Origin: an archaeon
Lineage (GTDB): Archaea; Nanobdellota; Nanobdellia; SCGC-AAA011-G17; GW2011-AR17
Length of the DNA stretch: 64,000 bases
Direction of reading: 5' to 3'
Assembly (NCBI GenBank): GCA_018653605.1
Contig: JABHYY010000018.1
Coordinates: 120,413-184,412 of the forward strand
Shown here in pieces: positions 8,952 through 47,906 of this stretch (within the stretch, counting starts at the first letter, position 1; each line of letters begins with the position of its first letter). A program made the position numbers and the translations under genes. The notes under the pieces are model-generated. The model was not told where the DNA came from. It was given only the letters and a program-made list of their open reading frames with translations, and ran no database searches.

Positions 8952-9959
8952 ATGGAATACACATTATACCTCTGCTTCATAATTAGTTTTGCAGTAACCT
9001 TCCTAATAGTACCTTTTTGGATAAGAGCATGTCATAGATTCAAGTTGATAAATAGGGATGTTCATAAAAATGACAACAAGAAAATCGCAGAACTTGGAGG
9101 TATAACAGTCCTTGTTGGATTTGTATTAGGTGTTCTTGCATATATTGCAATAAACACATTCATTATTGAAGGTTCAGTAACAGAACTACTAAACAAAAAC
9201 CTAAACATCATGGCATGTTTAGTAACAATTTTAATCGCAACTTTCATTGGAACAGTTGATGATCTGTTTGGCTGGAAAATAGGATTAAAACAATGGCAAA
9301 AACCAATCTTAATGGTAATTGCAGCAATCCCAGTAGCAGTAATCAATGCAGGTGAATCAATTGTAGGTTTACCAATTATAGGAAATTTTGACTTAGGTCT
9401 TTTGTTCCCATTACTAATAATTCCAATTGCAATCTCTGGCGCATCAAATGGCTTTAACATGATAGCAGGTTACAATGGATTAGAAGCAGGCATGGGGATG
9501 ATAATCTTAACAGCACTAGGTTACATTGCATGGCTTAACGATTACAGCTGGGTTACAATGATCGCACTCTGTATGGCAGCAGCACTAGCAGGATTTTACA
9601 TGTACAACAAAATACCAGCCAAGATATTTGGTGGCGACTCTTTAACATACCCAGTAGGAGCTCTGATAGGCTGCATTGCAATCTTAGGTAACATGGAAAA
9701 AGTATCACTAATTATATTCACTCCATACATAATTGAATTCTTTCTAAAAGCAAGAGGCAGGTTCAAAAAAGAAAGTTTTGCAAAACTAAACAAAGATGGT
9801 TCATTAAGCTTAAAATACAAAAAAATCTATGGCTTAGAACATTTGATATTATATCTAAAAACTAAAATGGGCAAAAAAGTTTATGAACAAGATGTAATCC
9901 TAACTTTATTCTTAATTCAACTACTGTTCATCATTCTTGGATTTATTTACATCTATTAA
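8952..9959 (+). CDS. aglH: Polyprenyl-phosphate HexNAc-1-phosphate transferase (MraY/WecA/AglH family)
   Basis: About 10 TM segments. Conserved cytoplasmic loops DDLFGWKIGLKQWQK and GASNGFNMIAGYNGLEAG are typical of GPT/MraY-family enzymes. Confidence 0.7.
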   Translation: MEYTLYLCFIISFAVTFLIVPFWIRACHRFKLINRDVHKNDNKKIAELGGITVLVGFVLGVLAYIAINTFIIEGSVTELLNKNLNIMACLVTILIATFIGTVDDLFGWKIGLKQWQKPILMVIAAIPVAVINAGESIVGLPIIGNFDLGLLFPLLIIPIAISGASNGFNMIAGYNGLEAGMGMIILTALGYIAWLNDYSWVTMIALCMAAALAGFYMYNKIPAKIFGGDSLTYPVGALIGCIAILGNMEKVSLIIFTPYIIEFFLKARGRFKKESFAKLNKDGSLSLKYKKIYGLEHLILYLKTKMGKKVYEQDVILTLFLIQLLFIILGFIYIY

Positions 9960-10760
9960 AGAACTAAACCCTTCTTCAAAAAACACTTTAGGAGACCAAT
10001 CCAACAACTCCTTAGCTTTTGAAACATTCATAACATACCTTTGAACAGCTTCCTCATGCGACAAAACCTTTTCAACTTTCAAACCAGGAAACTTTTTCTT
10101 TGCTATTTCCACAGCTTCATTCAAAGAAACTTCTTCACCAGTCCCTAGATTTATAACTTCACCTTTAACATCACTTTCAATAGCCAAACAAACAGCACCT
10201 AACAAATCATCCATATGCAAAAAGTCTCGAGTTACACCACCAGAACTTTGCATCACAAAAGGTTGATCATTTTCAATTGCATTTTTCAAATCAGAAAGGA
10301 ATCTAGTACCTGAATGCCCAGGACCATAAACAATCGGCAACCTAAAAACAACACCACCCTTTTCCAAACAGATCTTTTCAGCTAACTGTTTAGTTTTTGC
10401 ATAATCATTGGGTTCAGAACCAACCATGCTCTCTTCAAAAGGAGCATCATTGCCAGCATAAACCAAAGCACTACTAAAAAAAATAAATTTTCCATCACAA
10501 GCATCTAACACATTCTTAGTACAACCAAAATTAACAGAGTACAACTTTTCATAAGGCAAAGAAAAATTAGTCAACCCTGCCAAATGAATAACACAATCAG
10601 GTTTAATCGCCCTAACCTTTTCAAAAACTTTATCTTTATCAGTCAAATCCAAATCTTCAAAAGAAAAAGAATAAACATCATAACCTTCATTAACTAATCT
10701 CTCAATTACAAAGGAACCAATAAAGCCCCTTCCTCCAGTAACAAAAACTTTCTTAACCAT
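9921..10760 (-). CDS. NAD(P)-dependent sugar epimerase/reductase (extended SDR)
   Basis: Rossmann motif [14 protein letters not shown]. The catalytic-region spacing is typical of RmlD/GalE-like enzymes. The start is taken at MVKKVFV. Confidence 0.65.
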
Positions 10761-11724
10761 ATTTAGCAAGGAACTCTCTATACCAAGCAATTGTTCCCCT
10801 TAACCCTTCTTCAATTGAATGTTTAGGAACCCATCCAAGAACATTTTTAATTTTTTCACTTGATAAATACTGATCTTTAATTTCACCCTGTACTTCATTC
10901 AAAACAGTTGGTTGAATTACACTTGGATACAAACTTGAAGTTAACCTAACTAAGTCTAAAACATTAATCTTATTCATAGTACTAATGTTAAATGCCTCAC
11001 CCTTACACTTTTCAATGTTTTCAGCAATAGTAAGATAAGCATCAACAGCGTCAGCAAGATATAAATAATCTCTAATAAAAGTTCCATCACTTCTAATGAT
11101 TGGAGACTCATTCATGTACAAACTTCTAATAGTTCCAGGTATAATTCTGTTCCAATTCAAATCACCAGGACCATACAAGTTACCACACCTTGTAACACAA
11201 ACAGGCAACCCATAAGTTTTGTAAAAAGATAATGAAATCAAATCAGTACAAGACTTTGAAACATCATAAGGATGTTCACCTTGCAAAGGAGTTTCCTCAG
11301 TATAAGGCAAAACCTTTTGTGACCCATAAGCTTTATCACTTGAAGCAACAACAACACTTTTCACGAGTTTGCTAACTCTTGCAGCTTCAAGAACATGCCA
11401 AGTACCACGGATATTAGAATCAAAAGTTGACAATGGTGACCGATTAGCAGTTCCAACAATAGCTTGTGCAGCCAAGTGAAACACAGTATCAATTTCATAC
11501 TCATTAATAGTTCTCTCTAATAATAAATAATCTTGCAAAGCACCTCTTACAATGTTAACTCTCTTATCCAAACCTAACATAAAAAAATAAGAGTTATGAA
11601 CACCATCTCTAACAAGCACAGTAACATTAGCACCTTTCTCAACAAGAGCTTTAACTAAGTTGGAACCTAACAACCCAGTTCCACCAGTCACAAAAACATT
11701 TCTGTTCTTCCAAAACTCATTCAT
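10753..11724 (-). CDS. rfbG: CDP-glucose 4,6-dehydratase-like NDP-sugar dehydratase
   Basis: [21 protein letters not shown] mirrors RfbG FWQGKRVFVTGHTGFKG. The catalytic pair is YDVSKSC (YxxxK). It lies immediately downstream of rfbF. Confidence 0.65.
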
Positions 11725-12509
11725 CTCCAAACCCTCCAAGGCACTTGATTTGATTTCCAAATATTATTCAAATGCTGATGATCTCTTGTAGTATCCATAC
11801 ACTGCCAAAATCCTTTATGTTTGTATGACATAAACTGTTGCTCAGAAGCCAACTGTTTCAACGGCTCCCTTTCCAACATACAATCCGGATCTTCAGTCAA
11901 ATAATCAAATATCTTTTTATTAAAAACAAAAAAACCACCATCAATCCACCCTTCATGAATCTTAGTTTTCTTAGTAAAATCTAAAATCTGTCCATGCTCA
12001 TTAATTGTAAGGTTACCAAACCTAGTTGAAGGTCTAACAGTAGTCACAGTACCAACTTTCCCATGAGTTCTATGATAATTTAACAATTCAGGAATATTAA
12101 TGTCAGCAACACCATCACCATAAGTCACCATAAAATTATCACCAGTAATATGCTTTTCAATCTTTTTAATTCTACAACCAGTATTACTATGCAAACCAGT
12201 ATTAGCAAAAGTTATGTTCCAATCAGGAATTTCAGTATCACCATGAAATATTTTATCTCTTGTTCTCAAGTTAAAAGTATAATCTTTCACATGACTATGA
12301 AAATTCCTAAAATAATTCTTAATCATATCACCTTTGTAACCTAAACAAAGAACAAAATCATTAAACCCATAATGAGAATATGTTTTCATTATATGCCAAA
12401 GAATAGGATGAGAACCAACATTAACTAAGGGTTTAGGCATAAACTCGGTCTCTTTATTCATACGAGTACCCATTCCACCACATAATATTACAACCTTAGG
12501 TTTTTCCAT
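11721..12509 (-). CDS. rfbF: Glucose-1-phosphate cytidylyltransferase
   Basis: [56 protein letters not shown] closely matches the RfbF N-terminus (G-G-x-G-T-R signature). Confidence 0.8.
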
Positions 12510-13186
12510 TTTGCAATCCTCCATTGAATCATGTTTGTTAAAAATTCTTTAACAGTATTAAGACGAACATTAGACCTTCCAGCCTTTCTTTCATCGAATT
12601 TAACCAACACCTCATCTACTTTAAAAGGTTTATGAACCAATCCTAACATTATTTCAGCATCAATAAACCAATCCCTAGATCTCAGGTGTAAACTATCATA
12701 AAAGTCCCTAGAAAAAAACTTAGGCTTAGCATTAATATCTCTATATTTTGTTAAAAAGAACAAATGAAACAACCCATTATAAAAAAATGAAGCAAAGATT
12801 CGCTTTAACCCATCACCTCTAGCATACCTAATAGCCTTAGCAAAATCATTTCCTGACTCTTTCATCTTTTTATACACTTTCAACATATCTTCAGGAGAAA
12901 CTTGCCCATCTCCATCAGCATACCCTAAGATATCGCCTCTACAAGCTTTCAATCCATTAATTATACCCCAGCCATAACCTTGATTTACTCTAAGAGTTAC
13001 AACTTTAATTTTGTTAGATTTCAACCTGTCCAAAATCTCCCCAGTCTTATCTTTAGAACCATTATTAACAATAACCAACTCATAATCCAACCCTTCCTTA
13101 TCAAAAGCCTTTTGCATTTTAGTCACAACTGACTCAACAATATCTTGCTCATTATACATGGGCATTACAAAAGACAACTCTACCAT
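12488..13186 (-). CDS. Family-2 glycosyltransferase (GT-A, Dpm1/DPG-synthase-like)
   Basis: LSFVMPMYNEQD...YELVIVNNGSKDKT...YADGDGQ (DxD). Confidence 0.75.
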   Translation of the reverse strand: MVELSFVMPMYNEQDIVESVVTKMQKAFDKEGLDYELVIVNNGSKDKTGEILDRLKSNKIKVVTLRVNQGYGWGIINGLKACRGDILGYADGDGQVSPEDMLKVYKKMKESGNDFAKAIRYARGDGLKRIFASFFYNGLFHLFFLTKYRDINAKPKFFSRDFYDSLHLRSRDWFIDAEIMLGLVHKPFKVDEVLVKFDERKAGRSNVRLNTVKEFLTNMIQWRIAKWKNLRL

Positions 13187-13231
13187 CCAACTTCAAAATA
13201 AAATATCTATTATAAGCTTTTTGGAGCTCAG

Positions 13232-13271
13232 ACACATTCAATAAGAACTAACTTATAGAAAAGACTTCTAA
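13232..13271. repeat. 40-bp direct repeat, copy 1: a duplicated fragment of the 3' end of the 13692-14270 methyltransferase gene
   Basis: acacattcaataagaactaacttatagaaaagacttctaa is identical to 13696-13735. On the minus strand it reads ...SLFYKLVLIECV* followed by a stop. Confidence 0.85.
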
Positions 13272-13691: not shown

Positions 13692-14270
13692 TCAAACACA
13701 TTCAATAAGAACTAACTTATAGAAAAGACTTCTAAACATGTGATACCTTTTCACCTTAGAATAATTATTCAACATATCCTTTAACAGAAAAAAATCCCTA
13801 ATATGCTTACCTCTATCCAAACTATACAACACCCTACCAACCAGATTATACTTCTGTGGCACAGGCTCCATAATAAAAACACCTTTTTTTGCAATCCTCT
13901 TACACTCATGCATCACCTTCTCAAACTCATCATCATCCATATGGTGTAGAAAGTTTAGTAAAAGCACTTTATCATAACTCTTATCCTTAAAATCCATATT
14001 CATTGCATCCATCACTGCAAATTTTTTATCAGGAAACTCTCTCTTAGCTTTCACAATGAATTCATCAAAAAAATCAACTCCAGTATAATTTTTCTTAAAC
14101 AATTTTGAAAATATTCCAGTCCCACACCCAATCTCTAAAACAGTCTCATCATCTTTATGATCAACAAACTTTGTCAGATTACTAAACATTGGTTTGTACG
14201 AACCAAGAACACACCATCTAACAACATCAAACAATATTGGCAAATCAAACACTTTATCTTTAATTGACAT
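13692..14270 (-). CDS. Class I SAM-dependent methyltransferase
   Basis: Motif I VLEIGCGTGIFSKLF, an acidic motif II, and LLLNFLHHMDDDE. The start is taken at MSIKDK to avoid overlap with the upstream membrane-protein gene. Confidence 0.7.
   Translation of the reverse strand: MSIKDKVFDLPILFDVVRWCVLGSYKPMFSNLTKFVDHKDDETVLEIGCGTGIFSKLFKKNYTGVDFFDEFIVKAKREFPDKKFAVMDAMNMDFKDKSYDKVLLLNFLHHMDDDEFEKVMHECKRIAKKGVFIMEPVPQKYNLVGRVLYSLDRGKHIRDFFLLKDMLNNYSKVKRYHMFRSLFYKLVLIECV
13696..13735. repeat. 40-bp direct repeat, copy 2: the native 3' end of the methyltransferase gene
   Basis: Identical to 13232-13271. It encodes the last 12 codons plus the stop of the 13692-14270 CDS. Confidence 0.85.
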
Positions 14271-15723
14271 TTTGATAGAGACAAACCTCCTCACTTTTAA
14301 ACTTTTCTTCAAATCCACACATCTTCAAAGTTTCACAATGTTCATCAAATGTAATAATATCAGTAGTTTCTAGTTCAGTTATAACTTCAGTAAAACCTTC
14401 ACAATCTTGTGCTTCTAAAGTTTCCATAGTTTGCACTTCTAAAAGATCAAGATATTCTAAAGAAGGAATCGAATACCACCCAGATGAGGTTGAAAGGTTT
14501 AGGTAAAGTGCAGCATAAGAATAATAAGCCATTTCATAAGACCCTTGTTCCATACCTAAGATAAGAAAAGTTCCTTCAACATGTTCCATTGTTTCTATCA
14601 TAGTTTCATCAAAGGTACTATTTTCAATAAAGAAAGGAGTGTGTAAAGCACTGACAACAACACTAGCCACTGCTATTAGGATCAGTAATACTGGAATAAC
14701 TCTCTTAAGTTTTGTAAACCTTGTCTTCAAGAAGAAAAATAATGTAAAAAATATAAAAAAGTAATTATAAGTGTCTGGGTAAACATACTTCAAACCAGGA
14801 ACAAAAATTATCAACCTTGTTAACACTAAAAAAGCTAAACCTAAAACAGGTAAGAAAAATAAAAATTCTTTTTTAACATTCTTACCTTTCACATAAAAGA
14901 TAAAACAAGTTAGCACAGCTAATGAAGTTATGGTTGTAATCAAAGTTTGCAACAGATACTCAGAGTTGAATAACAATAATGTTTCAGTTAAAACTATTGT
15001 AACACCATGTGAACCAAAGAAATTCATCACATAGGGATACAACCAGAATGAACCTATTACTAAAGATAAAACAAAAATTAAAGCAATGTAAACTTTTTCT
15101 CTTCTAATCACAAAAAACCATAACAGCATCACAGTTCCAAGCATTGCAATAACCTGATGAGACAAGATTGTTAAAGTGTAAACAGGTAAACCAAGTAAAA
15201 AATACTTATCTAACTCCCTATCTTTGTAATAAATAAACAAGAGTAATAAAAAACTAAGCCAGAACAAACCAAAAAATTCATGCAACCTGCCTAAACGAAG
15301 GAAATTGCCAATTGCCATAGCATTCGCAGTGAAAAAAACAAACCAGAGCAAAGATCGCAAGCAAGACATTTTTAATTTCTTTCCAAAAACCAAAAATAAA
15401 ACCAAAAAGGCAACATAAGTACCAACAAGAGATAAGTAAGCAACAACTTGCACATTACCAATTAAAAGATACAAAGGATACATAACTAAAAACCAAGCAG
15501 GTGCAATCAAAAGAAATGAAATAAACCCCCCATACCAATAAGGACAAAACTCATGAAATCCACAAGATTGTAAAAAATGCAACTGAGTCATATAAGATGA
15601 CCAATCATTAACCATGTCAAAAGGGAAAGTAAACATTACTTGTGATTGATCAATTAACCTAATCACTAAATATGCAAATAATATAACTATAGGGGCTAAT
15701 AACCACCAATCTGACTTTTTCAT
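14260..15723 (-). CDS. Polytopic integral membrane protein (≥10 TM), possibly a GT-C-type glycosyltransferase
   Basis: A 487-aa highly hydrophobic protein in glycan-locus context. No catalytic motif could be recognised by eye. Confidence 0.4.
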   Translation of the reverse strand: MKKSDWWLLAPIVILFAYLVIRLIDQSQVMFTFPFDMVNDWSSYMTQLHFLQSCGFHEFCPYWYGGFISFLLIAPAWFLVMYPLYLLIGNVQVVAYLSLVGTYVAFLVLFLVFGKKLKMSCLRSLLWFVFFTANAMAIGNFLRLGRLHEFFGLFWLSFLLLLFIYYKDRELDKYFLLGLPVYTLTILSHQVIAMLGTVMLLWFFVIRREKVYIALIFVLSLVIGSFWLYPYVMNFFGSHGVTIVLTETLLLFNSEYLLQTLITTITSLAVLTCFIFYVKGKNVKKEFLFFLPVLGLAFLVLTRLIIFVPGLKYVYPDTYNYFFIFFTLFFFLKTRFTKLKRVIPVLLILIAVASVVVSALHTPFFIENSTFDETMIETMEHVEGTFLILGMEQGSYEMAYYSYAALYLNLSTSSGWYSIPSLEYLDLLEVQTMETLEAQDCEGFTEVITELETTDIITFDEHCETLKMCGFEEKFKSEEVCLYQNVN

Positions 15724-15775: not shown

Positions 15776-16462
15776 ATGGATAAATCCTATGAACAAGAGT
15801 ATTTCAAGCTAGAAAAGGAATATTGGTGGTTTAAAGCAAGAAGACACCTGATTAAAAAAATAAAAATCAAACCAAACCAAAAAATTTTGGAAGTTGGCTG
15901 TGGCACAGGTTTAAACCTTAACCTATTCCCAAAAAATCAAAGACATGGTATTGACATTTCTAAAGAAGCAATAAAACAAATCAAAGATTTTCCAGCAGAA
16001 GTTGCAGACATACAAAAAGTTAAACTAAAAAAATATGACATTATCCTAGCTTTAGACCTTATTGAACACCTTGACAAAGACAAACAAACACTACAAAAAC
16101 TAACAAACGCTCTAAACCCAAAAGGTAAACTCATAATCACAGTCCCAGCATTCAAATGCCTCTGGTCAAAACATGATGAAGTAAATCATCACAAAAGAAG
16201 ATACAACAGAAAACAATTCAAAACAATCCTACCTAAACAACTAAAGACAAACATCCTAACATACTGGAATTTCAGCCTATTCCCCATAGTATTCATATTA
16301 AACAAACTAAACAAAAAAAAATCAAACCTAAAACCAATCAACCCAGTTCTAAATTTCATATTCTACAATAAACTTAAACTAGAAAATTGGCTAATTACAC
16401 AAGGAATCAACTTCCCTTTTGGAACAAGTATATTCTACATAGGTGAGAAAACAGATAAATAA
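15776..16462 (+). CDS. Class I SAM-dependent methyltransferase
   Basis: Motif I ILEVGCGTGLNLNLF; post-I D-I-S; motif II ILALDLIEHL. Confidence 0.7.
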   Translation: MDKSYEQEYFKLEKEYWWFKARRHLIKKIKIKPNQKILEVGCGTGLNLNLFPKNQRHGIDISKEAIKQIKDFPAEVADIQKVKLKKYDIILALDLIEHLDKDKQTLQKLTNALNPKGKLIITVPAFKCLWSKHDEVNHHKRRYNRKQFKTILPKQLKTNILTYWNFSLFPIVFILNKLNKKKSNLKPINPVLNFIFYNKLKLENWLITQGINFPFGTSIFYIGEKTDK

Positions 16463-16493
16463 AACTTATAAAGGGAAAACTAAACTCAAACCC

Positions 16494-17372
16494 ATGCTTG
16501 TAGTAATATCAATCCCAGCTTTGAATGAAGAGAAAACATTGCCTTTTGTTTTAACTGAAATAAAAACAGTAATGGCCAGAACAAAGTACAAATACAAAAT
16601 TCTAGTAATAAATGATGGTTCTACAGATAAAACAGTACAGGTTGCAAAAAAACATGGTGCAGTAGTCTATTCAAATTCAAGGAATAAAGGTCTAGCAGAA
16701 ACATTCAAGCATGAAATGAAAAGATGTTTAGAACTAAAAGCAGACATCATAGTACACACAGATGCAGATGGACAATATCCTGCTGAATACATCCCAAAAC
16801 TAATCCAAGAAATTGAAAATGGTGCAGAATTAGTTCTAGGAAGCAGATTTGCTGGAGAAATTGAATCAATGTCATTCATGAAAAAGTTTGGCAACATTGC
16901 ATTTGCAAAATTATTCTCAAGACTAACAAAAACTGACTTAACAGATTCAACAACAGGATTCAGAGCATTCACAAGACAAATTGCAGAAGAGATTGAATAC
17001 ACAACAGACTTCACTTACACTCACGAACAACTTATCAAAGCTTCAAGATTAAAATTCAAAATAAAAGAAATTCCAATCTTTGCAAGAAAAACAAGAGAAA
17101 GCAGACTAATGAAAGGTCCACTTGACTATGCAATGAAAGCATGGATTAACATATTCAGAATCCACAGAGATTTTGCACCTTTAGCATTCTTTGGAAAAAT
17201 TGGAATTGCATTCTTAGCATTAGGATCAATCTTAGGACTATGGGTAATCTTCAATGTTGTAGCTTATGGCCAGACAGGTGGAATCCCTAGAGTTATCCTT
17301 ACAGCAATCTTAATTCTAACTGGAATACAAATTATCCTCTTTGGATTCCTAGCAGACATGCAGAAGAAATAA
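16494..17372 (+). CDS. Family-2 glycosyltransferase, dolichyl-phosphate hexose synthase-like, with a C-terminal TM anchor
   Basis: LVVISIPALNEE...KILVINDGSTDKT...HTDADGQ (DxD); two C-terminal TM helices. The start is taken at MLVVIS. Confidence 0.75.
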   Translation: MLVVISIPALNEEKTLPFVLTEIKTVMARTKYKYKILVINDGSTDKTVQVAKKHGAVVYSNSRNKGLAETFKHEMKRCLELKADIIVHTDADGQYPAEYIPKLIQEIENGAELVLGSRFAGEIESMSFMKKFGNIAFAKLFSRLTKTDLTDSTTGFRAFTRQIAEEIEYTTDFTYTHEQLIKASRLKFKIKEIPIFARKTRESRLMKGPLDYAMKAWINIFRIHRDFAPLAFFGKIGIAFLALGSILGLWVIFNVVAYGQTGGIPRVILTAILILTGIQIILFGFLADMQKK

Positions 17373-28985: not shown

Positions 28986-29059
28986 GTCTAAACTTTATTA
29001 TTTTAGGTTTAAAAGATTTGTGCATAATTCTTATAAACAAAAAACTAAAAAACAATCTA

Positions 29060-38705: not shown

Positions 38706-39782
38706 TTATAAAGTTTGTGTATTTAACACATCACTCCACTCTTCACTCAACCTAGAAACATCATACTTCCCCTCAACAAACTCTCTTCCTTTCCTACCCA
38801 TAGCAAACATTTTATCTTGATTCTTAGAACACCAAATAATCCTTTCCTTCAAAGCTTCCTTATCCCTCTGCCCAACCAGAAAACCATAATCCTTTCCAAC
38901 AATCTCCTTAGGACCAACACAATCAGTTGAAATCACAGCAGTACCACAAGCCAAAGATTCCAATAAAACAATCCCATACAACTCTTCCCACCCTTTAATT
39001 TTATAAGAATTCAAAACAAAAACAGAACTTTCACCAAACACCTTAGCTAACTCATCCCTATCATTAATATGACCTAAAAACTTAACATTAGGCAAGGTGC
39101 AATCCTTAAGCTCTGACTCCATTGCCCCAGACCCAGCAAACCTAAAATCTATTTCAGGCAACTCCTTAGCAATCTCTAAAATATCTTTAATCCCTTTCTC
39201 CCTAACCAACCTACCAGTGAACAACACAGTAAACTTCTCTAATTTTTTACAAGGTTTAAACACTTCAAGATCAACAGCATGTGGTATTTGTACAACTTGT
39301 CTAGTATACTTTAACAAACCCTTTCTTGCAGTATCAGAAATGGTTACAGCTTTTACATTTTTTAAGAATCTCTCCCAAAAAAAGAGTTTGATTTTGTTAG
39401 GCTTGAAAACATAATCTCTACCATTCCAAAAAGGCCAAGAAGTCATATACACCAGATCTTTTTTGAACTGTTTCAACAACCACAGATAAACACCCATCCA
39501 ACTATAAGGTGCAAAAAGAACAACCACTTTCTTCTTAGTAAACAACAACTGAAAATAAGAAAAAAATGAATTAAACAAAGTACTAAACTTAACTTTCTTC
39601 ACATTCAAAGGTTTACCTAAAAAATCATGCGCCAAAATCCTCAAAGAGCCAAACCGAGAATAAATAAACAAGAAACATAAGTAAAAAAACCTAGAATCTC
39701 TAAACTCAACATTACCTTTAACCCTTCTAAGAGCTCTATAATAATCCTTTGTTGGACACTCAGTAAACACAATCACTTCCAT
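38706..39782 (-). CDS. GT-B glycosyltransferase, family 4
   Basis: GT4 C-terminal core: FTGRLVREKGI...ESLACGTAVISTDCVGPKEIV. Confidence 0.7.
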   Translation of the reverse strand: MEVIVFTECPTKDYYRALRRVKGNVEFRDSRFFYLCFLFIYSRFGSLRILAHDFLGKPLNVKKVKFSTLFNSFFSYFQLLFTKKKVVVLFAPYSWMGVYLWLLKQFKKDLVYMTSWPFWNGRDYVFKPNKIKLFFWERFLKNVKAVTISDTARKGLLKYTRQVVQIPHAVDLEVFKPCKKLEKFTVLFTGRLVREKGIKDILEIAKELPEIDFRFAGSGAMESELKDCTLPNVKFLGHINDRDELAKVFGESSVFVLNSYKIKGWEELYGIVLLESLACGTAVISTDCVGPKEIVGKDYGFLVGQRDKEALKERIIWCSKNQDKMFAMGRKGREFVEGKYDVSRLSEEWSDVLNTQTL

Positions 39783-42600: not shown

Positions 42601-42652
42601 TCCATAAACCTTAAAAAATAAACTCCAATTTATAAAACCTATGGAACAACAA
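42601..42652. promoter_or_regulatory. 52-nt repeated divergent-promoter module, copy B
   Basis: Identical to 39778-39829. The TATA-like ttaaaaaataaa lies ~25 nt upstream of the methyltransferase ATG at 42641. Confidence 0.7.
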
Positions 42653-43306
42653 GATTTCGAAGAAAATTACTTCACAAACTACAAAGAACAAACTTTCAGA
42701 TGGAAATTTTGGAGCAATTACATAAAAAATAATTTTCAAGGTCCAATCCTAGAAATTGGTTGCTCTTATGGTTTTCTGTACAAATACCTAAAAGATTACA
42801 CAGGTATAGACATTTCAAAACATGCAATAAAGATAGCACAAAAACAAAACAAAGACAAATTCTCAGTAATGGACGCAGAAAAACTTGATTTCAAAGACAA
42901 CCAATTCAACTTAATCCTAACCTTAGACTTACTAGAACACCTAAACAACCCAGAAGAGTGTATCAAAGAATGTGCAAGAGTACTAAAAAATAAAGGATCA
43001 ATAATAATTAGCACTCCAAACCCAGAATCAAAAAGTAAAAGAGTAAAAGGAAAAAACTGGTTTGCAAACAAAGACAAAACACATGTTTCAATTCACAATG
43101 CAAACTACTGGATAAAACTTCTAAGAAAACACAATTTTGTAGTCACAGTCAACAAAACAATAGATCTGTTTGACTTCCCCTACTTCAACAAACTATTCAT
43201 ACTAATCAACCTAATCCTATACAAGATAAACAAACCTTTTTTAAAAAAATCAGGTGACAACTTAGTAATAATTGCTAAGATCGATAAAACTTCTCAAACT
43301 CAGTAA
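42641..43306 (+). CDS. Class I SAM-dependent methyltransferase
   Basis: Motif I ILEIGCSYGFLYKYL; D-I-S; LILTLDLLEHL. Confidence 0.7.
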   Translation: MEQQDFEENYFTNYKEQTFRWKFWSNYIKNNFQGPILEIGCSYGFLYKYLKDYTGIDISKHAIKIAQKQNKDKFSVMDAEKLDFKDNQFNLILTLDLLEHLNNPEECIKECARVLKNKGSIIISTPNPESKSKRVKGKNWFANKDKTHVSIHNANYWIKLLRKHNFVVTVNKTIDLFDFPYFNKLFILINLILYKINKPFLKKSGDNLVIIAKIDKTSQTQ

Positions 43307-44408
43307 CAACATTACTAACCAAATACTCCTTAGCCTTAACAGAATTATGCTCCTTCATCTTATCAACTAACTTCTTATCATTAATCAACCTTAACATAAC
43401 TTTTCCCAACTCATCCAAATTCCTATAATCAAAAAGAAAACCTTCATCAGCACCAACAACAAAACTTCCACCCTCAGTTCGAGTACTAACCAAAGCACAA
43501 CCTCGAGCCATAGCTTCAATCAAAACAATACCAAAAGCCTCCCACTCAGATGGCAAAACAAAAATATCAGTCGCATCCAACCCAGCCAACTTTTCAGAAT
43601 CAGAAACCCGACCAGCAAGAATTAAATGCTTCTCAACCTTTAACTCCTTAGCCAAGCTTCTAAGCTTAGCATATTCACCATCAACCTCACCCCCCATTAC
43701 CAAAAAAACAATAGAAGGATCCACTTTGACCAAAAAAGGCAAAACTTCAACAATTTGCCTCAACCCCTTATACTTCTGAACCCTACCAATATAACCAATA
43801 ACCAATTTCCTTTTCAAATTAAAAAATCTTTTCTCATTAACATCAGAAAAAATACTTTCAGGAATAGAATTAGGTATAAACTTAATTCCTTGCTTGCAAA
43901 ACCCGTACTTCTCCATCCATCTATACTGAGAAGGATTTACTTGCACAGAACCATGATACAACATGTTAACTGGATACTCAATTGTAACATATAAAAACCT
44001 CAACAAAGCTTGCCACCAAGGATACTTTTCAAGCGCCATAAAAGGACCATGTGGAGTGTTAACCAATTTCGTTTTAGTAAACAACCTTCTAAGCAAAACA
44101 CCAAGATCTTGAAAAATAAAACCAATACTTTGCACATGCAAAACATCTAGCTTATACCCCAAATGTTTGAAAGCAATTCCAGGATTAAAATTCAAATAAT
44201 ATTTATAATTTAAAAAAGACCTACTTCTATGGATTTGTACACCATCAACAGTTTCATCTTTAGAAAACACTTTACCACCCTTCCGATCAGAGGTAAACAC
44301 ATGCACTTCATGACCCTTTTTAGCCAACTCTTTAGCAATTCCAAAAGTCAACTCTTCCATCCCACCAGTTGCAGGATAAAAATAATTTGCCATAAACCCA
44401 ATTTTCAT
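43275..44408 (-). CDS. GT-B glycosyltransferase, family 4
   Basis: N-terminus MANYFYPATGGMEE; C-terminal E-x7-E region PSEWEAFGIVLIEAMARGCALVST. Confidence 0.7.
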   Translation of the reverse strand: MKIGFMANYFYPATGGMEELTFGIAKELAKKGHEVHVFTSDRKGGKVFSKDETVDGVQIHRSRSFLNYKYYLNFNPGIAFKHLGYKLDVLHVQSIGFIFQDLGVLLRRLFTKTKLVNTPHGPFMALEKYPWWQALLRFLYVTIEYPVNMLYHGSVQVNPSQYRWMEKYGFCKQGIKFIPNSIPESIFSDVNEKRFFNLKRKLVIGYIGRVQKYKGLRQIVEVLPFLVKVDPSIVFLVMGGEVDGEYAKLRSLAKELKVEKHLILAGRVSDSEKLAGLDATDIFVLPSEWEAFGIVLIEAMARGCALVSTRTEGGSFVVGADEGFLFDYRNLDELGKVMLRLINDKKLVDKMKEHNSVKAKEYLVSNVVTEFEKFYRS

Positions 44409-44506: not shown

Positions 44507-45649
44507 ATGAGAATAGCTATAGTTAGTCAGTTCTTCCTACCAACAATTGGTGGAGTAGAAAAGGTAATTGAAGTTCTAGCAAAAGAATACATTAAACAAG
44601 GCCACACAGTAGATGTTTTCACTTCAGACACTGACAAATACAAAAGAATAAAGAAAAAGTTTGAAATAATTGATGGTATAAGAATTCACAGATCAAGATA
44701 CATAGCAAAACTATCATTCAACACATACATATTCCCAGGAGTGTTTCTAAAACTACTAAAACATGACTTTGATGTAATCCACACACATGTTGGAGCAAGA
44801 GATTATGTTTTATACGCAGGTTTGATTGCAAAATATAAGAAAAAACCACACATTCACACAACACACTGCCCATGGACAGACAAGTTCAGACCACTAGCAG
44901 TAAGAATACCATTATTTTTCACAGACAAAATATTCAACTACATCTCATTCAACCTTTGCAACAAAATAATTGCAATCACACCCTGGGAAGTTCCAATCCT
45001 AAAAAAATGGGTTAAAGAAGAAAAAATAAAAGTTCTACACAATGGAATGGAAGGTTCTTTATTCAAAAAAATAAAAAATAATCCTTTCAGAAAACAAATC
45101 ATGAATGATCCAAAGAAAAAATTAGTTCTATTCTTTGGAAGACTACACCCAACAAAATCACCTCACCACTTTGCACAAGTTGCAAAAGAAATACTTGATG
45201 AAAGATGTGATATTGAATTTGCAATGATCGGTCCTGATGAAGGTATGATGGGCCAAGTTAAAGAAGTTGCAAACAATCACCCAGACATTCATATTATAGG
45301 CCCTTGGCCATATGAAAAAATTGGACAAATGTACCAAGGTTCAGACCTTTATGTTTTAACTTCATACAGAGAAGGTCTGCCACTAACTCTATTCGAAGCA
45401 ATGGCATCAGAACTACCAGTTGTTTCAACCCCAGTGAATGGAATTTCATATGAAATGGAAGATGGTGTCAATGGCTACCTTTATCCACATGGTGACTTAA
45501 AACAACTCAAAGAAAAAATATTGAAAGTTATAGAAAATCCAGACTTAGCAAAAAAATTCTCACAAAACAACATCAAAAAAGTTAAAGAATACACCTGGGA
45601 AAACATTGCAAACGAAACACTCAAAATATACAGGGAAGAAATGAAATGA
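44507..45649 (+). CDS. GT-B glycosyltransferase, family 4
   Basis: N-terminus IVSQFFLPTIGGVE; C-terminal SYREGLPLTLFEAMASELPVVSTPVNG. Confidence 0.75.
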   Translation: MRIAIVSQFFLPTIGGVEKVIEVLAKEYIKQGHTVDVFTSDTDKYKRIKKKFEIIDGIRIHRSRYIAKLSFNTYIFPGVFLKLLKHDFDVIHTHVGARDYVLYAGLIAKYKKKPHIHTTHCPWTDKFRPLAVRIPLFFTDKIFNYISFNLCNKIIAITPWEVPILKKWVKEEKIKVLHNGMEGSLFKKIKNNPFRKQIMNDPKKKLVLFFGRLHPTKSPHHFAQVAKEILDERCDIEFAMIGPDEGMMGQVKEVANNHPDIHIIGPWPYEKIGQMYQGSDLYVLTSYREGLPLTLFEAMASELPVVSTPVNGISYEMEDGVNGYLYPHGDLKQLKEKILKVIENPDLAKKFSQNNIKKVKEYTWENIANETLKIYREEMK

Positions 45650-47022
45650 AAGTATTACTAGTCTACCCAAACATTGTAGAATCACCTAAAGACATGTCTA
45701 TTGGACTAGGTATCATATCAGCTATGTTAAAAGAAAAAGGACACAAAGTTGAACTAATTGACACAACTTTCAAAGTTTCAGATGACGAAATCATAGACAA
45801 AGTTGACCAATTCAACCCAGACCTAGTTGCAGTCACTGCAGCAACCAATGACCTTCAAAACGCAATAAGAATCTCACAGATAATCAAAGAAACTAAAGAA
45901 GTACCAATCATCTGTGGTGGTTACCATGCAACTGTTGCACCAAAAGACATCATAGACCAAGATTGCTTTGACATGGTTGCAATTGGAGAATCAGAACAAT
46001 CACTAATCAAACTAACAAAAGATCTAAACAACACTAAAATTCCAAACATCTGGTTCAAAAAAGGTAAAAAGATAACAAAAAATGAAATAGGAAAACTAAC
46101 TGAAGATCTAGACAAACTCCCTTTCCCAGACAGAGAAATATTCAACTACCAAAAATACATTGACTCAAACAGAGGCTTAGCAACTTTCATGTCAAGCAAA
46201 GGTTGCCCTTTCTTATGTTCATATTGTATAAACAAAGTTTTGATTGACAAATACAAAGGAAAAGGAAAATTCCTAAGATTCAGATCAATTGACAATTTAA
46301 TGAAAGAAATGAAAGAAGTCATAACAAAATACAAAGTTAAAGAAATTGAATTCTACGACGACACTTTCACTATAAACAAACAAAGACTAAGAGATTTCGC
46401 AAAAAGATATCCAAAAGAAATTGGACTACCATTCTACATTAATGCAAGAGTAAACGCAGTAACAAAAGAAGATTTCAAACTATTGAAAGAAGCAGGATGT
46501 GTAAGAGTATCAATTGGAATCGAAGCAGGCGACCCATACATAAGAAATGACATTCTAAAAAGGTTTCAAAGCAACAAACAAATCATTGACACTTTTCAAT
46601 GGGCAAAAGAAGAAGGACTAAGAACATACTCATTCAACATGATAGGAGTTCCATTTGAAACACAAGAAAGCATAAAAAAAACAATTGAACTCAACAGAAA
46701 AGTTCAACCTGACTATGTAGGAATTTCCATTTTCAATGCATTCAAAGGAACAGAACTGTACGACATATGCAAAAAGAACAAATGGCTAAAGGACAAAGCA
46801 TCAGCATCATACTTCCAATCAAGTAATGTTAACCATCCAAACTTCACAATAAAAGAACTAAAGAAAATAAGAGACAGTTTCGGATTCGAAGTTTACAAAA
46901 ATGCAGACAAAAAAAGAGCATACATTGACTTGATAGACAAAAAACTAACAAAAGTCCCTTTATACACAAAAACAAGATCTTTACTAATAGAAAAAGGGAT
47001 TAAAAAACTCATAGAAAAATGA
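45646..47022 (+). CDS. B12-binding-domain radical SAM enzyme (class B)
   Basis: A B12-binding N-terminal domain followed by SSKGCPFLCSYC. Confidence 0.8.
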   Translation: MKVLLVYPNIVESPKDMSIGLGIISAMLKEKGHKVELIDTTFKVSDDEIIDKVDQFNPDLVAVTAATNDLQNAIRISQIIKETKEVPIICGGYHATVAPKDIIDQDCFDMVAIGESEQSLIKLTKDLNNTKIPNIWFKKGKKITKNEIGKLTEDLDKLPFPDREIFNYQKYIDSNRGLATFMSSKGCPFLCSYCINKVLIDKYKGKGKFLRFRSIDNLMKEMKEVITKYKVKEIEFYDDTFTINKQRLRDFAKRYPKEIGLPFYINARVNAVTKEDFKLLKEAGCVRVSIGIEAGDPYIRNDILKRFQSNKQIIDTFQWAKEEGLRTYSFNMIGVPFETQESIKKTIELNRKVQPDYVGISIFNAFKGTELYDICKKNKWLKDKASASYFQSSNVNHPNFTIKELKKIRDSFGFEVYKNADKKRAYIDLIDKKLTKVPLYTKTRSLLIEKGIKKLIEK

Positions 47023-47906
47023 TCACAGTAATTATAACTGCATACAAAGAGGAAAGAACAGTTGGCAAAGCAATCCAAGCTTTCCTTAACCAAGATTATC
47101 CAGAAGAGATAGAAATTCTAGTAGCTTGCCCTGACAAAGAAACAAAAGCAGTGATAGACCAGTACACAAAGAAACACAAAAATGTAAAATATGTTAAAGA
47201 CCCTGGAAAAGGTAAACCAATAGCACTTAACATCTGTTTCAAAAAAGCAAAAGGTGAGAAATTAATTCTAACTGATGGAGATGTATATGTCAGCAATAAC
47301 AGCATAAAAGAATTAATGAAACAACTAAACAAAGAAAACATTGGAGCAGTCACTTCAAGGCCAAGATCAGTAAACCCAAGGACAACAATGTTAGGCTATT
47401 TCTCGCACCTTTTAACAGACATTGGAGCTCATCACACAAGACTAAAATATGTCAAAAAAAACCAATTTATCGTCTGCTCAGGCTACTTATTTGCAATGAA
47501 AAAACTATTTACAGAAATTCCAGAAGATGCTCTGTCAGATGACGCTGTGATGTCGTATATGATAGCAAACAAAGGCTACAAAATTGGATACGCACCAAAA
47601 GCACAAGTTTATGTTAAATTCCCTACACACCTCAAAGACTGGATTAAACAAAAAAGAAGGTCAGCTGGAGGTTACAACCAAATTGAAACTTACTTCCCAA
47701 AACACAAAAGAATGCGATCATTCTGGGAAGAAATAAAAGAAGGTTGGTACAAACCATTCACATACCCAGAAAACTTTCAAGAATACACCTGGACAGTTTA
47801 CCTATACTTCATAAGACTATACCTTTGGTTCTTAATTTACAAAGATATTAACATAAAAAAGAAAGACTTCAATGAAATTTGGGTTAGAATAGAATCAACA
47901 AAATAA
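47019..47906 (+). CDS. Family-2 glycosyltransferase
   Basis: ITVIITAYKEERTVGKAIQAFLNQDYPEEIEILV...TDGD (DxD). Confidence 0.7.
   Translation: MITVIITAYKEERTVGKAIQAFLNQDYPEEIEILVACPDKETKAVIDQYTKKHKNVKYVKDPGKGKPIALNICFKKAKGEKLILTDGDVYVSNNSIKELMKQLNKENIGAVTSRPRSVNPRTTMLGYFSHLLTDIGAHHTRLKYVKKNQFIVCSGYLFAMKKLFTEIPEDALSDDAVMSYMIANKGYKIGYAPKAQVYVKFPTHLKDWIKQKRRSAGGYNQIETYFPKHKRMRSFWEEIKEGWYKPFTYPENFQEYTWTVYLYFIRLYLWFLIYKDINIKKKDFNEIWVRIESTK

Follow-up and report, generated by a model that had tools for sequence, protein, structure and literature searches.

The window, a 64,000-nucleotide stretch of an archaeal contig, contains a contiguous glycan-biosynthesis island of about 39 kb (8952-47906) that is probably a surface-glycan locus of a DPANN-type archaeon, in which radical SAM and DUF362 enzymes would tailor the sugars of the glycan. 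The host, a tiny uncultivated archaeon of low GC content, has Woesearchaeota/Nanoarchaeota as its nearest named relatives. Profile assignments supported the 39 kb island proposed in a preliminary description of this DNA, from a PF00953 initiator at the left border (8952-9959, +) to a GT2 glycosyltransferase at the right border (47019-47906, +), with housekeeping genes flanking the left side. The 35 genes include a standard set (an AglH/WecA-type initiator, RfbF, two SDRs, three GT2, five GT4, Wzx, an LPG-synthase-type flippase-like protein, two GT-C enzymes and three methyltransferases) and an unusual set (four SPASM/twitch-type and three B12-domain radical SAM enzymes, and three DUF362 proteins). 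Radical SAM genes make up about 1-2 % of a prokaryotic genome by our own rough estimate, a share exceeded by the seven of 35 found here. Genes of the glycan toolkit were assigned as follows.

8952..9959 (+), polyprenyl-phosphate sugar-1-phosphate transferase, AglH/WecA/MraY family (PF00953, 112.8 bits)
9921..10790 (-), SDR epimerase/reductase (PF01370, 121 bits)
10753..11760 (-), NDP-hexose 4,6-dehydratase-like SDR, RfbG-like (TIGR02622, 185.6 bits; TIGR01181, 184.8 bits; both below cut-off)
11721..12524 (-), glucose-1-phosphate cytidylyltransferase, RfbF (TIGR02623, 318.9 bits; cut-off 300.25)
12488..13186 (-), soluble GT2, 232 aa (PF00535, 98 bits)
13692..14318 (-), class I SAM methyltransferase (PF08241, 70 bits)
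14260..15723 (-), membrane glycosyltransferase of the GT-C fold whose C-terminus is a small globular domain
15776..16462 (+), class I SAM methyltransferase (PF13489, PF08242)
16443..17372 (+), AglJ/DPM-synthase-type GT2, polyprenyl-phosphate hexose synthase type, two C-terminal TM, core module
17397..18509 (+), GT4, core module (PF00534)
24056..25207 (-), GT4, core module (PF13692, PF00534)
28053..28985 (-), LPG_synthase_TM 'flippase-like' membrane protein, core module (PF03706, 74.6 bits; TIGR00374, 61.2 bits, above 43.2)
28973..30628 (+), GT-C glycosyltransferase, PMT_2/ArnT/AglS type, 11 TM (PF13231, 46.4 bits, above 26.1)
31993..33465 (+), Wzx/AglR-type flippase (PF01943, 107.5 bits)
33462..35339 (+), heparinase II/III-like protein, no TM (PF16889, PF07940)
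36821..37345 (+), nucleoside 2-deoxyribosyltransferase-like protein (PF15891, 34.9 bits, above 30)
38706..39782 (-), GT4 (PF00534, 105 bits)
42641..43306 (+), class I SAM methyltransferase (PF08241, 78 bits)
43275..44408 (-), GT4 (PF00534, 109 bits)
44507..45649 (+), GT4 (PF00534, 113 bits)
47019..47906 (+), GT2, Glyco_tranf_2_3/GT21-like (PF13641, 83 bits; PF13506, 38.6 bits)

The initiator has eight TM and scores under the MraY and WecA cut-offs. Of the rfbF/rfbG pair named earlier, RfbF exceeds its curated cut-off but its 4,6-dehydratase-like partner does not, and the epimerase/reductase corresponds to the second SDR, at 9921, which reached no NCBIfam cut-off. The three GT2 (12488, 16443, 47019), Wzx (31993), the LPG-synthase-type domain (28053) and the GT-C-like proteins (PMT_2 type at 28973, GT-C fold at 14260) were all recovered, while GT4 enzymes and class I SAM methyltransferases are present in lower numbers than claimed (five, not six, and three, not four, respectively). 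The GT-C fold protein at 14260 (487 aa) belongs to a family restricted to DPANN-like metagenomic contigs, and the GT-C at 28973 is kept in loci L007, L022 and L092. The GT2 at 16443 aligned over its full length with its nearest structures, Pyrococcus Dol-P-Man synthase (5mlz, 7e-21), GtrB and ArnC. Six same-strand ATGA overlaps couple glycosyltransferase, radical SAM and DUF362 genes, and further overlaps of 8 and 10 nt occur; the coupling described previously is thus present, but in place of long operons there are at least six same-strand runs, each of three to six genes. The island also contains short ORFs without annotation, of 104 aa and 116 aa.

Three giant sequon-dense surface proteins had been described beside the island, of which only one qualifies.

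53532..63926 (-), giant Laminin_G_3-repeat surface protein with a C-terminal TM anchor (PF13385, eight stretches)

This protein, whose N-terminus is cut off by the window end, is 4110 aa long on the source contig and contains 172 sequons, where composition shuffles give 71 +/- 7. The other two adjacent proteins (1451 aa and 379 aa) contain three and no sequons, respectively; a membrane-proximal domain is common to all three. By these sequon counts, the 4110-aa protein is the only plausible sequon-rich glycosylation substrate among the neighbours, and it is treated here as a candidate. A protein N-glycan is a putative destination; neither AglB nor a WWDxG motif was found across the window and the adjoining 10 kb on the left.

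The seven radical SAM proteins all carry CxxxCxxC and share 27-31 % mutual identity.

20643..21770 (-), radical SAM with a multi-Cys SPASM-like C-terminus, core module (PF04055, 88.5 bits; nearest PDB BlsE, 1.6e-14)
22860..24059 (-), twitch-type radical SAM with four C-terminal Cys, core module (PF04055, 47.5 bits; N_Twi_rSAM, 66.6 bits, below 170; nearest solved relatives SkfB and MoaA)
25200..26645 (-), B12-binding-domain radical SAM, HpnJ-like, core module (PF02310, PF04055; HpnJ TIGR03471, 290.4 bits, below 577.6; nearest PDB AprD4)
27096..28100 (+), radical SAM with a 7-Cys C-terminal region, core module (PF04055, 99.3 bits; nearest PDB SkfB and MoaA)
35356..36819 (+), B12-binding-domain radical SAM (PF02310, 67.6 bits; PF04055, 92.7 bits)
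37334..38356 (-), radical SAM with a SPASM/twitch domain, BtrN-like (PF04055, 65.3 bits; PF13186, 61.1 bits; nearest PDB BtrN, 6e-13, then BlsE)
45646..47022 (+), B12-binding-domain radical SAM (PF02310, 75 bits; PF04055, 88.8 bits)

An N-terminal B12-binding domain is found in three of them (25200, 35356, 45646), as had been proposed, and the last is coupled by ATGA at both ends to the GT4 and GT2 on either side. The other four (20643, 22860, 27096, 37334) carry C-terminal Cys clusters of the twitch/SPASM type, in line with the earlier assignment, but the Pfam SPASM gathering score was passed by 37334 only (19.8 against 21.5 for 22860; no match for 20643 and 27096). None of the seven reached the cut-off of any curated NCBIfam model, cofactor and peptide maturases included. 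The nearest solved relatives of three of them, AprD4, BtrN and BlsE, act on sugars. DPANN archaea are unlikely to synthesise cobalamin, so the B12 domains here may be cofactor-free, as that of AprD4 reportedly is.

A core module consisting of the AglJ-like GT2, two GT4, four radical SAMs and the flippase-like protein was found again in three other archaeal contigs (L006, L007 and L092) at 55-75 % identity, with the interleaved, translationally coupled order with glycosyltransferases retained. Orthologues in L006 (Ca. Woesearchaeota B3_Woes) scored 162-717 bits and correspond to the GT2 at 16443 (390 bits), the GT4 at 17397 (401 bits) and 24056 (532 bits), the radical SAMs at 20643 (554 bits), 22860 (536 bits), 25200 and 27096 (455 bits), and the LPG_synthase_TM protein at 28053. 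The core layout of L007, where the heparinase-like protein is also conserved, is almost syntenic with the island, and L092 contains six radical SAMs within 16 kb. The linkage of radical SAMs to glycosylation genes is therefore kept in these relatives and, in the case of the HpnJ-like B12 enzyme, also in bacteria, where it directly follows a GT2 in eight loci; glycosyltransferases, SDRs and flippases are conserved neighbours of every radical SAM. Such density had been implied to be rare. However, among 80 GTDB loci fetched via one B12 radical SAM family, 23 contained at least four radical SAMs, and glycosyltransferases were nearby in 55 (at least one) or 37 (at least two). Comparable arrays beside glycosyltransferases are spread across many uncultivated lineages, and the island is one case among them.

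This linkage bears on whether the radical SAM and Fe-S genes could be housekeeping cofactor maturases, or a viperin-like anti-virus system, within a variable glycan region. Generic likeness to MoaA, NirJ/Ahb, PqqE and a tungsten-cofactor maturase was seen, as were prokaryotic viperin matches of up to 90 bits (PADLOC), but all NCBIfam scores are far under cut-off (MoaA, 92 against 325; AhbD, 88-102 against 500; viperin, 78 against 180), and seven such divergent enzymes are ill-suited to a single maturase role. These scores and the conserved, coupled glycosyltransferase linkage largely refute this explanation, which we regard as extremely improbable.

Peptide maturation is the role for which SPASM/twitch radical SAMs are best known, and those of the island could cross-link or epimerise a small precursor or the surface protein, with the glycosyltransferases decorating the peptide as in Bacteroidetes glycosyltransferase/radical-SAM peptide systems. 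Top NCBIfam matches include the sactipeptide/ranthipeptide maturases StsB (122 bits), WgkB and PapB; 27096 and 22860 lie closest, among solved structures, to SkfB; the GT4 at 24056 best matches TIGR04157 'glyco_rSAM_CFB' (97 bits); and the 104-aa and 116-aa ORFs are present in the island. However, these scores are far under cut-off (122 against 625; 97 against 400), and the small ORFs are not conserved, a beta-helix gene replacing the 104-aa ORF in L007 and neither being present in L006. The island lacks a RiPP recognition element, a protease and an exporter, and glycan genes are conserved around every radical SAM. Peptide maturation seems a poor prospect.

A modified glycolipid is a more credible product, though still an unlikely one. 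Here a GT2 would glycosylate a membrane or carrier lipid, HpnJ-like B12 radical SAM(s) would remodel the head group, perhaps contracting its sugar ring to a cyclitol, a reaction proposed for HpnJ (hopanoids) and Cds (archaeal tetraethers), and the LPG-synthase-type protein would flip the lipid. Among NCBIfam models, two of the three B12 enzymes score highest against HpnJ (290 and 156 bits, nearly full length), the LPG_synthase_TM protein matches HpnL weakly, and the GT2 at 47019 matches Glyco_transf_21, a lipid-glycosylating family. GT2s of this type also adjoin B12 radical SAM genes in bacterial loci: a GT2 directly precedes the HpnJ-like gene in eight of ten of the closest, and the GT2-(LPG_TM)-B12 radical SAM adjacency of these eight and of L006 resembles hpnI-hpnJ-hpnL. 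HpnJ has been assigned to ring contraction of lipid-linked glucosamine, and HpnJ and Cds ring contraction together offer a precedent (PMC13459092). However, the HpnJ scores reach half of the 577.6 cut-off, the GT2 at 47019 matches HpnI at only 31 bits and an HpnK-like deacetylase was not detected in the island. Moreover, ten glycosyltransferases, two GT-C enzymes and Wzx far exceed the needs of a head-group pathway, and a giant sequon-enriched surface protein adjoins the island.

The three proposed DUF362 Fe-S proteins were all found, but only one has a bona fide ferredoxin domain.

18506..19573 (+), DUF362 (LarA-fold) with a C-terminal 4-Cys tail (PF04015, 159 bits)
19564..20646 (+), DUF362 paralogue, 41 % identical to the preceding protein (PF04015, 125 bits)
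21767..22891 (-), DUF362 fused to a 2x[4Fe-4S] ferredoxin domain

Catalytic-looking invariant residues are kept in all three copies (K/N/T/K-T-H/K-N/H/E-G/D in 18506), and the two copies without a ferredoxin domain end in a four-Cys tail (CxxC...C...GCPP). In L006 the radical SAMs are present and DUF362 is absent, two extra SDRs occupying the corresponding positions, so DUF362 is not an obligatory partner. Distant DUF362-ferredoxin homologues in Deltaproteobacteria (~40 % identity) adjoin Tol-Pal, DUF3047 and AsmA and no glycan genes; the family is therefore not glycan-specific.

Given the gene content, family membership, folds and conserved synteny, the most likely function of the surface-glycan locus is to tailor dolichol-linked sugars by radical and hydride chemistry, with predicted substrates and reaction types. 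The phosphotransferase at 8952 and the Dol-P-hexose-synthase-type GT2 at 16443 would charge lipid-phosphate carriers according to the agl plan, soluble GT4/GT2 enzymes would lengthen the glycan, and RfbF with the two SDRs would supply CDP-6-deoxyhexose. Wzx and the flippase-like protein may carry lipid-linked sugars outward, where the GT-C enzymes (14260, 28973) would pass them to an acceptor, most likely the 4110-aa Laminin-G protein. The seven radical SAMs may perform H-atom-abstraction chemistry on nucleotide- or dolichol-linked sugars, candidate reactions being C-methylation, deoxygenation (diol dehydration), oxidation/decarboxylation, epimerisation and HpnJ/Cds-like ring contraction. The DUF362 proteins may catalyse hydride-transfer epimerisation or oxidoreduction at sugar hydroxyl carbons, the job of the SDR epimerases that hold their positions in L006; alternatively, the ferredoxin-fused copy could supply electrons to the flanking radical SAMs. 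The preliminary reading of a surface-glycan locus with radical SAMs outside the housekeeping maturases stands, neither a housekeeping placement of these enzymes nor a loss of their linkage in relatives having been seen, but without its rarity or three substrates; its specific chemistries (C-methylation, epimerisation, deoxygenation) we infer. The conserved arrangement in relatives points to uncharacterised oxygen-independent sugar chemistry.

Known systems resemble the island in part. LarA/DUF2088 proteins are nickel-pincer-nucleotide 2-hydroxyacid racemases/epimerases that act by hydride transfer, and DUF362 has the LarA fold. Its conserved His-x9-Lys-x14-His may parallel the catalytic His, cofactor-tethering Lys and Ni-binding His of LarA. 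Unlike LarA (~420 aa), the DUF362 domain has ~270 residues, is fused to a ferredoxin or 4-Cys tail and gave no sequence-level match to it. AprD4, BtrN, BlsE and GenK-type class B methylases, from aminoglycoside/nucleoside antibiotic pathways, include the nearest structures for three island radical SAMs and share a B12-like N-domain with a radical SAM core, or a twitch/SPASM auxiliary cluster. However, they share little sequence identity with the island proteins (E 1e-13 to 1e-25, partial coverage) and serve secondary-metabolite pathways of Actinobacteria/Bacillus rather than a cell-surface glycan locus.

In the hopanoid module HpnI (GT2)-HpnK-HpnJ-HpnL (LPG_synthase_TM), and with archaeal Cds, a GT2, an HpnJ-like B12 radical SAM and LPG_synthase_TM are clustered as here, which suggests, by analogy, that a lipid-linked sugar may undergo radical remodelling. 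The island differs in its archaeal host without hopanoid genes, its lack of HpnK, its half-cut-off HpnJ score and its far larger multi-glycosyltransferase setting. The closest standard plan is that of the agl clusters (Haloferax volcanii AglJ/AglD-AglR-AglS, AglG/I/E, AglP and AglF; methanogen and Sulfolobus AglH), which share the PF00953 lipid-phosphate initiator, an AglJ/Dol-P-hexose-synthase-type GT2, soluble GT2/GT4, SAM methyltransferases, a sugar nucleotidyltransferase, a Wzx/AglR-type flippase, a PMT_2-type GT-C like AglS (the outer-face transferase) and an adjoining sequon-rich surface protein. In contrast to these clusters, AglB is absent from the window and the GT2 at 16443 scores 149.6 bits against the AglJ model (TIGR04182; cut-off 325). 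No description of radical SAM or DUF362 genes in characterised agl clusters was found in the literature searched, whereas the island has seven radical SAM and three DUF362 genes interspersed among its glycan genes.

Pfam and NCBIfam scans covered every ORF in 8952-47906 and bore out the contiguous glycan-biosynthesis island that the preliminary description had placed there. Genes assigned by the scans are listed by their start coordinates in the window.

Genes of the island 8952-47906
8952, initiating phosphotransferase (PF00953)
9921, second SDR
10753, 4,6-dehydratase-like SDR
11721, RfbF (exceeds the curated cut-off)
12488, 16443 and 47019, three GT2 enzymes
13692, 15776 and 42641, three class-I methyltransferases
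17397, 24056, 38706, 43275 and 44507, five GT4-type enzymes
28053, LPG_synthase_TM flippase-like protein
28973, PMT_2 GT-C
31993, Wzx (PF01943, 107.5 bits)
33462, heparinase II/III-like protein
36821, nucleoside-deoxyribosyltransferase-like protein

The initiating transferase, RfbF, three GT2 enzymes, Wzx and LPG-synthase-type flippase first recognized by inspection were all present, and two counts were lowered, from six GT4 enzymes to five and from four SAM methyltransferases to three of class I. Translational coupling was also seen, with six same-strand ATGA overlaps and additional overlaps of 8 nt and 10 nt joining glycosyltransferase (GT), radical SAM (rSAM) and DUF362 genes; the genes form not a few long operons, as proposed, but at least six same-strand runs of three to six genes each.

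Archaeal housekeeping genes (PCNA, a TFIIS-type zinc ribbon, RNA polymerase subunit L and an MBF1-type HTH protein) lie to the left of the island. GC content over the 64 kb was approximately 32 %, and no RNA genes were found by Rfam and tRNA scans of the whole window. More than 20 metagenomic contigs, drawn from several samples and with the longest measuring 130-190 kb, encode exact copies of window proteins, which are present in JGI 3300072015, SRR7618778, ERZ27250154 and ERZ4200980. Candidatus Woesearchaeota and Nanoarchaeota MAGs supply the closest named homologues, and Tara Oceans data the closest overall; on these best hits the organism is treated here as a DPANN-type archaeon. GC skew was negative in 31 of 32 2-kb bins (cumulative -9.6) and AT skew mostly positive across positions 1-64000 regardless of gene strand, with values of approximately 0 (GC) and +0.27 (AT) for + strand gene runs and -0.4 and +0.1 for - strand runs. 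This strong, monotonic asymmetry of the strands suggests a marked replication-strand bias atop the coding bias, with the whole window within one replichore. The largest non-coding gaps within the island are 13187-13691 (505 bp), where public gene calls put an 82-aa ORF, and 38357-38705 (349 bp). An ORF of 913 aa inside the island (39816-42557, -) has no TM helix and no Pfam, NCBIfam or PADLOC match, and its N-terminal third consists of repeats of approximately 34 aa (period 102 nt) with the motif ...ERTWPGFVRMVEA.G....LF..GIP.VKDLI.... This ORF and those of 266, 116, 104, 1451 and 379 aa gave nothing credible in Pfam at E values up to 5.

The island is very probably a surface-glycan locus, in which the glycan would be built on lipid-phosphate carriers in the manner of archaeal agl loci. 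Parts shared with such loci are the PF00953 lipid-phosphate initiator, an AglJ/DPM-synthase-type GT2, eight further GTs and Wzx. The GT2 at 16443 can be aligned from end to end, its two C-terminal TM helices included, with Pyrococcus Dol-P-Man synthase, GtrB and ArnC, and its best NCBIfam matches are AglJ and a haloarchaeal dolichyl-phosphate hexose transferase; it is of the polyprenyl-phosphate hexose synthase type. Together with the flippase-like protein or Wzx and the PMT_2 GT-C, it matches the scheme of AglJ/AglD-AglR-AglS in Haloferax and of GtrB/ArnC-ArnT in bacteria. For AglB, neither the motif WWD[YWFN]G in any frame nor an STT3 Pfam match was found in the window, and none in the 10 kb leftward; AglB could be encoded elsewhere in the genome. 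The 487-aa protein of 14260-15723 has a GT-C membrane fold with nine TM helices, acidic residues are conserved in its first outer loop, and its 26 detectable homologues are all from similar metagenomic archaea. Its likeness to AglB is in fold only and, as it lacks WWDxG, it is not a canonical oligosaccharyltransferase. Pfam gave no match to Wzy_C/O-antigen-ligase or to the chain-length regulator Wzz in any island protein, and the only unassigned polytopic protein of the island has a GT-C fold. With neither a Wzy polymerase nor a chain-length regulator, the product is more likely to be a defined oligosaccharide than a long polymer.

Seven rSAM proteins are encoded in the island, all with the CxxxCxxC motif and with PF04055 scores of 47.5-99.3 bits (cut-off 29.5). 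The N-terminal B12-binding domain (PF02310) expected in three of them, which marks class B (cobalamin-binding) rSAM proteins, was above the cut-off of 32.1 bits in each (25200, 35356 and 45646, with 55.6, 67.6 and 75.1 bits, respectively). The other four had been described as SPASM/twitch-type, a subfamily defined by a C-terminal auxiliary Fe-S domain (Cx9-17GxxxC with further cysteines). C-terminal cysteine clusters were present in all four, as a C(x17)C element followed by two to six more cysteines, but the Pfam SPASM domain (PF13186, cut-off 21.5) was above threshold only for 37334 (61.1), with 19.8 for 22860 and no match for 20643 and 27096. Pairwise identity among the seven proteins was only 27-31 %, indicating seven different enzymes and not recent duplicates.

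Membership of well-characterized non-glycan families was examined by HMM scan, in which none of the seven rSAM proteins reached any curated NCBIfam cut-off. The housekeeping set consisted of MoaA, NirJ/AhbC/AhbD, PqqE, anSME, the tungsten-cofactor maturase and mycofactocin MftC, each judged by its NCBIfam equivalog cut-off. Best scores against cut-offs were 103/325 for MoaA, 102/500 for AhbD, 87/381 for PqqE, 127/380 for W_rSAM_matur (tungsten-cofactor maturase) and 110/265 for MftC, and these maturases were rejected; StsB (122/625) was likewise below cut-off. The defence enzyme prokaryotic viperin was rejected at no more than 77.7 bits against 180 for NF038283, the PADLOC pVip matches of up to 90 bits being generic core similarity. 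The idea that these are housekeeping or defence genes located here by chance is contradicted by the NCBIfam cut-offs and by synteny in relatives, and is hardly credible.

The nearest solved structures were AprD4 for 25200, BtrN and BlsE for 37334, BlsE for 20643, and SkfB or MoaA for 27096 and 22860. Thus, for three of the seven, the closest structurally characterized relatives are, at low identity, carbohydrate-acting rSAM enzymes. AprD4, the nearest solved relative of 25200, has been reported to need no cobalamin. The nucleoside 2-deoxyribosyltransferase-like gene (36821-37345, +) converges on the SPASM rSAM gene (37334-38356, -) with a 12-nt overlap, a pair reminiscent of BlsM (CMP hydrolase) and BlsE in the pathways of blasticidin-type nucleosides. 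The similarity is weak, so the pairing may be coincidental.

HpnJ (TIGR03471) was the best family match of the B12-domain rSAM 25200, over its full length, and scored 290.4, 170.9 and 155.9 bits on the three B12-domain enzymes against a curated cut-off of 577.6. The GT2 at 47019 was considered as HpnI and rejected at only 31 bits. No shc or hpn genes were found in the archaeal window, and the neighbours of the HpnJ-like genes are GTs. A glycolipid head-group pathway in the style of HpnI/J/L or Cds would account for the HpnJ and HpnL similarities and for the adjacency of GT2 genes but agrees poorly with a GT complement of this size and with scores below threshold, and we consider it unlikely.

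Linkage between rSAM and glycosylation genes is kept in three archaeal relatives. One locus (L007), with 74 % identity on the B12-domain rSAM 25200, is nearly syntenic with the window; the three DUF362 genes are all there, as are Wzx, PMT_2, LPG_TM and the heparinase-like gene. A second, from a separate MAG (L092; 56 % on the ferredoxin-fused DUF362 protein), contains within 16 kb four B12 and two other rSAM genes, two DUF362 genes, one GT2, two GT4, a methyltransferase and PMT_2. The third (L006, Ca. Woesearchaeota B3_Woes) contains, in a single cluster, orthologues (162-717 bits) of eight window genes, here termed the conserved core module: the GT2 at 16443, LPG_TM at 28053, the B12-domain rSAM at 25200, the GT4 enzymes at 17397 and 24056, and the rSAMs at 20643, 22860 and 27096. 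Small ORFs of the island were not conserved in L006 or L007 and no conserved precursors were detected, which, with the sub-threshold family scores, makes peptide or RiPP maturation coupled to glycosylation very unlikely. Bacterial homologues of the rSAM at 25200, from Syntrophobacter, Desulfobacterales, Anaerolineales and other groups, are approximately 40-44 % identical. In eight bacterial loci (L008, L012, L014, L016, L017, L019, L020 and L021), the gene directly upstream of the B12-domain rSAM gene, often overlapping it, encodes a GT2, with more GT2, GT4, Wzx or methyltransferase genes around these pairs. Interleaving of rSAM genes with GTs is conserved and translationally coupled, and the adjacency of GT2 and B12-domain rSAM genes extends across domains.

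A census was made of 80 GTDB loci among the matches listed for the family of the rSAM at 25200, classified with HMMs made from proteins of the window and from hits of the first round. At least one GT was present within approximately 10 kb in 55 of these loci, at least two in 37, and at least four rSAMs in 23, in a selection that is biased because each locus was picked for containing one such rSAM gene, with no random-gene background, and that leans toward bacterial homologues, the closest (>50 % identity) archaeal relatives lying outside the set. Arrays of five to six B12-domain rSAMs beside GTs were found in CPR (Portnoybacteria and Saccharibacteria), LCP-89, WOR-1, Omnitrophota, Nanoarchaeota and Asgard archaea. 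Tandem arrays of five to six such genes were also noted in LCP-89, Portnoybacteria (CPR), Elusimicrobia, Omnitrophota and a deltaproteobacterium (L028, L030, L065, L046, L057 and L064), some with GT2 and methyltransferase neighbours and others with no detectable GT. The relatives and the census indicate that the island is not a unique oddity but one of a recurring class of loci that is apparently undescribed. Full-text literature searches found no rSAM-rich archaeal or DPANN glycan cluster and no rSAM O-antigen or capsule locus of this kind, an absence that is not proof.

The proposed three DUF362 Fe-S proteins were partly upheld: three DUF362 genes are present (18506, 19564 and 21767), and the 2x[4Fe-4S] ferredoxin domain is found only on the product of 21767-22891, the other two having a CxxC...C...GCPP tail. 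DUF362 has a LarA-type fold, and the structure model of the ferredoxin-fused protein has a pLDDT of 91.8. This relationship is already known, since a 2024 study of the LarA superfamily treated DUF362 as an outgroup, with both in Pfam clan CL0471 (PMC11770544). A profile search against PDB sequences found no sequence bridge from DUF362 to LarA. Over 15 DUF362 sequences, including the three window paralogues, 18 positions are invariant, among them H141-x9-K151-x14-H166, a spacing that resembles that of the catalytic His, cofactor-tethering Lys and nickel-binding His of LarA.

DUF362-ferredoxin proteins are very widespread (>5000 hits), and deltaproteobacterial homologues with approximately 40 % identity adjoin Tol-Pal, DUF3047 and AsmA genes, on which ground DUF362 was rejected as a generally glycan-linked family. 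A tie to glycan genes is not inherent in DUF362 but applies to the archaeal subgroup. In three deltaproteobacterial loci (L010 8001-9122, L011 8001-9176 and L093 7852-8988), the gene lies in conserved synteny directly after tol-pal genes (ExbB/ExbD/TonB-like, TolB, OmpA/Pal and YfiO-like) and a GGDEF response regulator, and in two of the three it precedes DUF3047 and an AsmA/YhdP-like protein; in L093 a polysaccharide cluster with a B12-like rSAM follows. The arrangement hints at an envelope-related role for this branch. Among the archaeal loci, DUF362 is present at corresponding positions in the window, L007 and L092 and is lacking from L006, in which two SDR epimerase/dehydratase genes take its place (L006 11480-16963 versus window 18506-22891) within a core module that is otherwise orthologous. 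This is possibly a non-orthologous displacement, and the swap suggests that DUF362 carries out hydride-transfer epimerization or oxidoreduction. An obligatory role of DUF362-ferredoxin as rSAM reductase is weakened, as L006 keeps its rSAMs without DUF362; electron donation is a possible alternative role for the ferredoxin-fused copy. Full-text searches found no association of DUF362 with rSAM enzymes in the literature, which is again not proof of absence.

Three giant sequon-dense surface proteins had been described beside the island, and this description holds for one. The protein of 53532-63926 (-) carries eight Laminin_G_3 stretches and 172 N-x-S/T sequons, where composition-preserving shuffles give 71 +/- 7, and is a candidate for the sequon-bearing substrate of an agl locus; the 1451-aa neighbour (47949-52304, -) has three sequons and the 379-aa neighbour (52388-53527, -) none, and the mean over the rest of the window is 0.36 per 100 aa. 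On the 135-kb source contig the giant protein is 4110 aa long; as cut by the window edge (53532-64000, -) it lacks its true N-terminus, and the listed 3464-aa ORF begins at an internal ATG. All three proteins have in common a membrane-proximal domain (approximately 230-280 aa) with a TM helix after it, the identity being 25-29 % and the E values 1e-21 to 1e-31. This shared unit, a beta-rich ecto-domain of approximately 250 aa that is present twice in the 1451-aa protein, could be assigned to no family. In the 1451-aa and 379-aa proteins the TM helix leads into a very long cytoplasmic tail that is Lys/Glu-rich and coiled-coil-like.

Tailoring of the locus's own sugars is the likely function of the rSAM and DUF362 proteins. 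The seven rSAMs and three LarA-fold DUF362 proteins would act on nucleotide- or dolichol-linked sugars, by reactions that the nearest characterized relatives suggest may include C-methylation, diol dehydration/deoxygenation, oxidation/decarboxylation, epimerization and HpnJ/Cds-type ring contraction. A bolder extension, which we put forward as speculation and think improbable as a whole, is that DPANN archaea, and to judge from the census many CPR members and other uncultivated anaerobes too, have a dedicated oxygen-independent toolkit in which several rSAMs and LarA-fold DUF362 proteins act on dolichol-linked sugars to give sugar types new to surface glycans, such as carbocyclic (cyclitol), C-branched or radical-deoxygenated residues. 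DUF362 would then extend the nickel-pincer superfamily, or a related one of hydride-transfer enzymes, by a branch that acts on sugars, and the 487-aa GT-C, restricted to DPANN and AglB-like in its C-terminal domain, would be a minimal non-canonical transferase for such a glycan.

DPANN cells live attached to hosts, and contact with the host is likely to run through their surface glycans and giant adhesin-like proteins. For a reduced genome, so large an outlay on tailoring that depends on B12 and Fe-S would imply reliance on scavenged cobalamin. As related rSAM/GT arrays occur in CPR, Omnitrophota, Elusimicrobia and Asgard archaea, chemistry solved here would probably apply broadly. The island is a good lead for enzymology and DPANN surface biology, although related arrays are common in uncultivated lineages. 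We know of no member of the large DUF362 family with a known function, and the island would give it a first functional setting. From genome mining, the island appears to combine an agl-type glycan locus with an unprecedented module for radical and hydride tailoring. To our knowledge, nearly all characterized rSAM chemistry on sugars is from antibiotic pathways and two lipid head-group cases (HpnJ and Cds); if the rSAMs of the island do tailor sugars, cell-surface glycans would add seven uncharacterized rSAM families to this chemistry.
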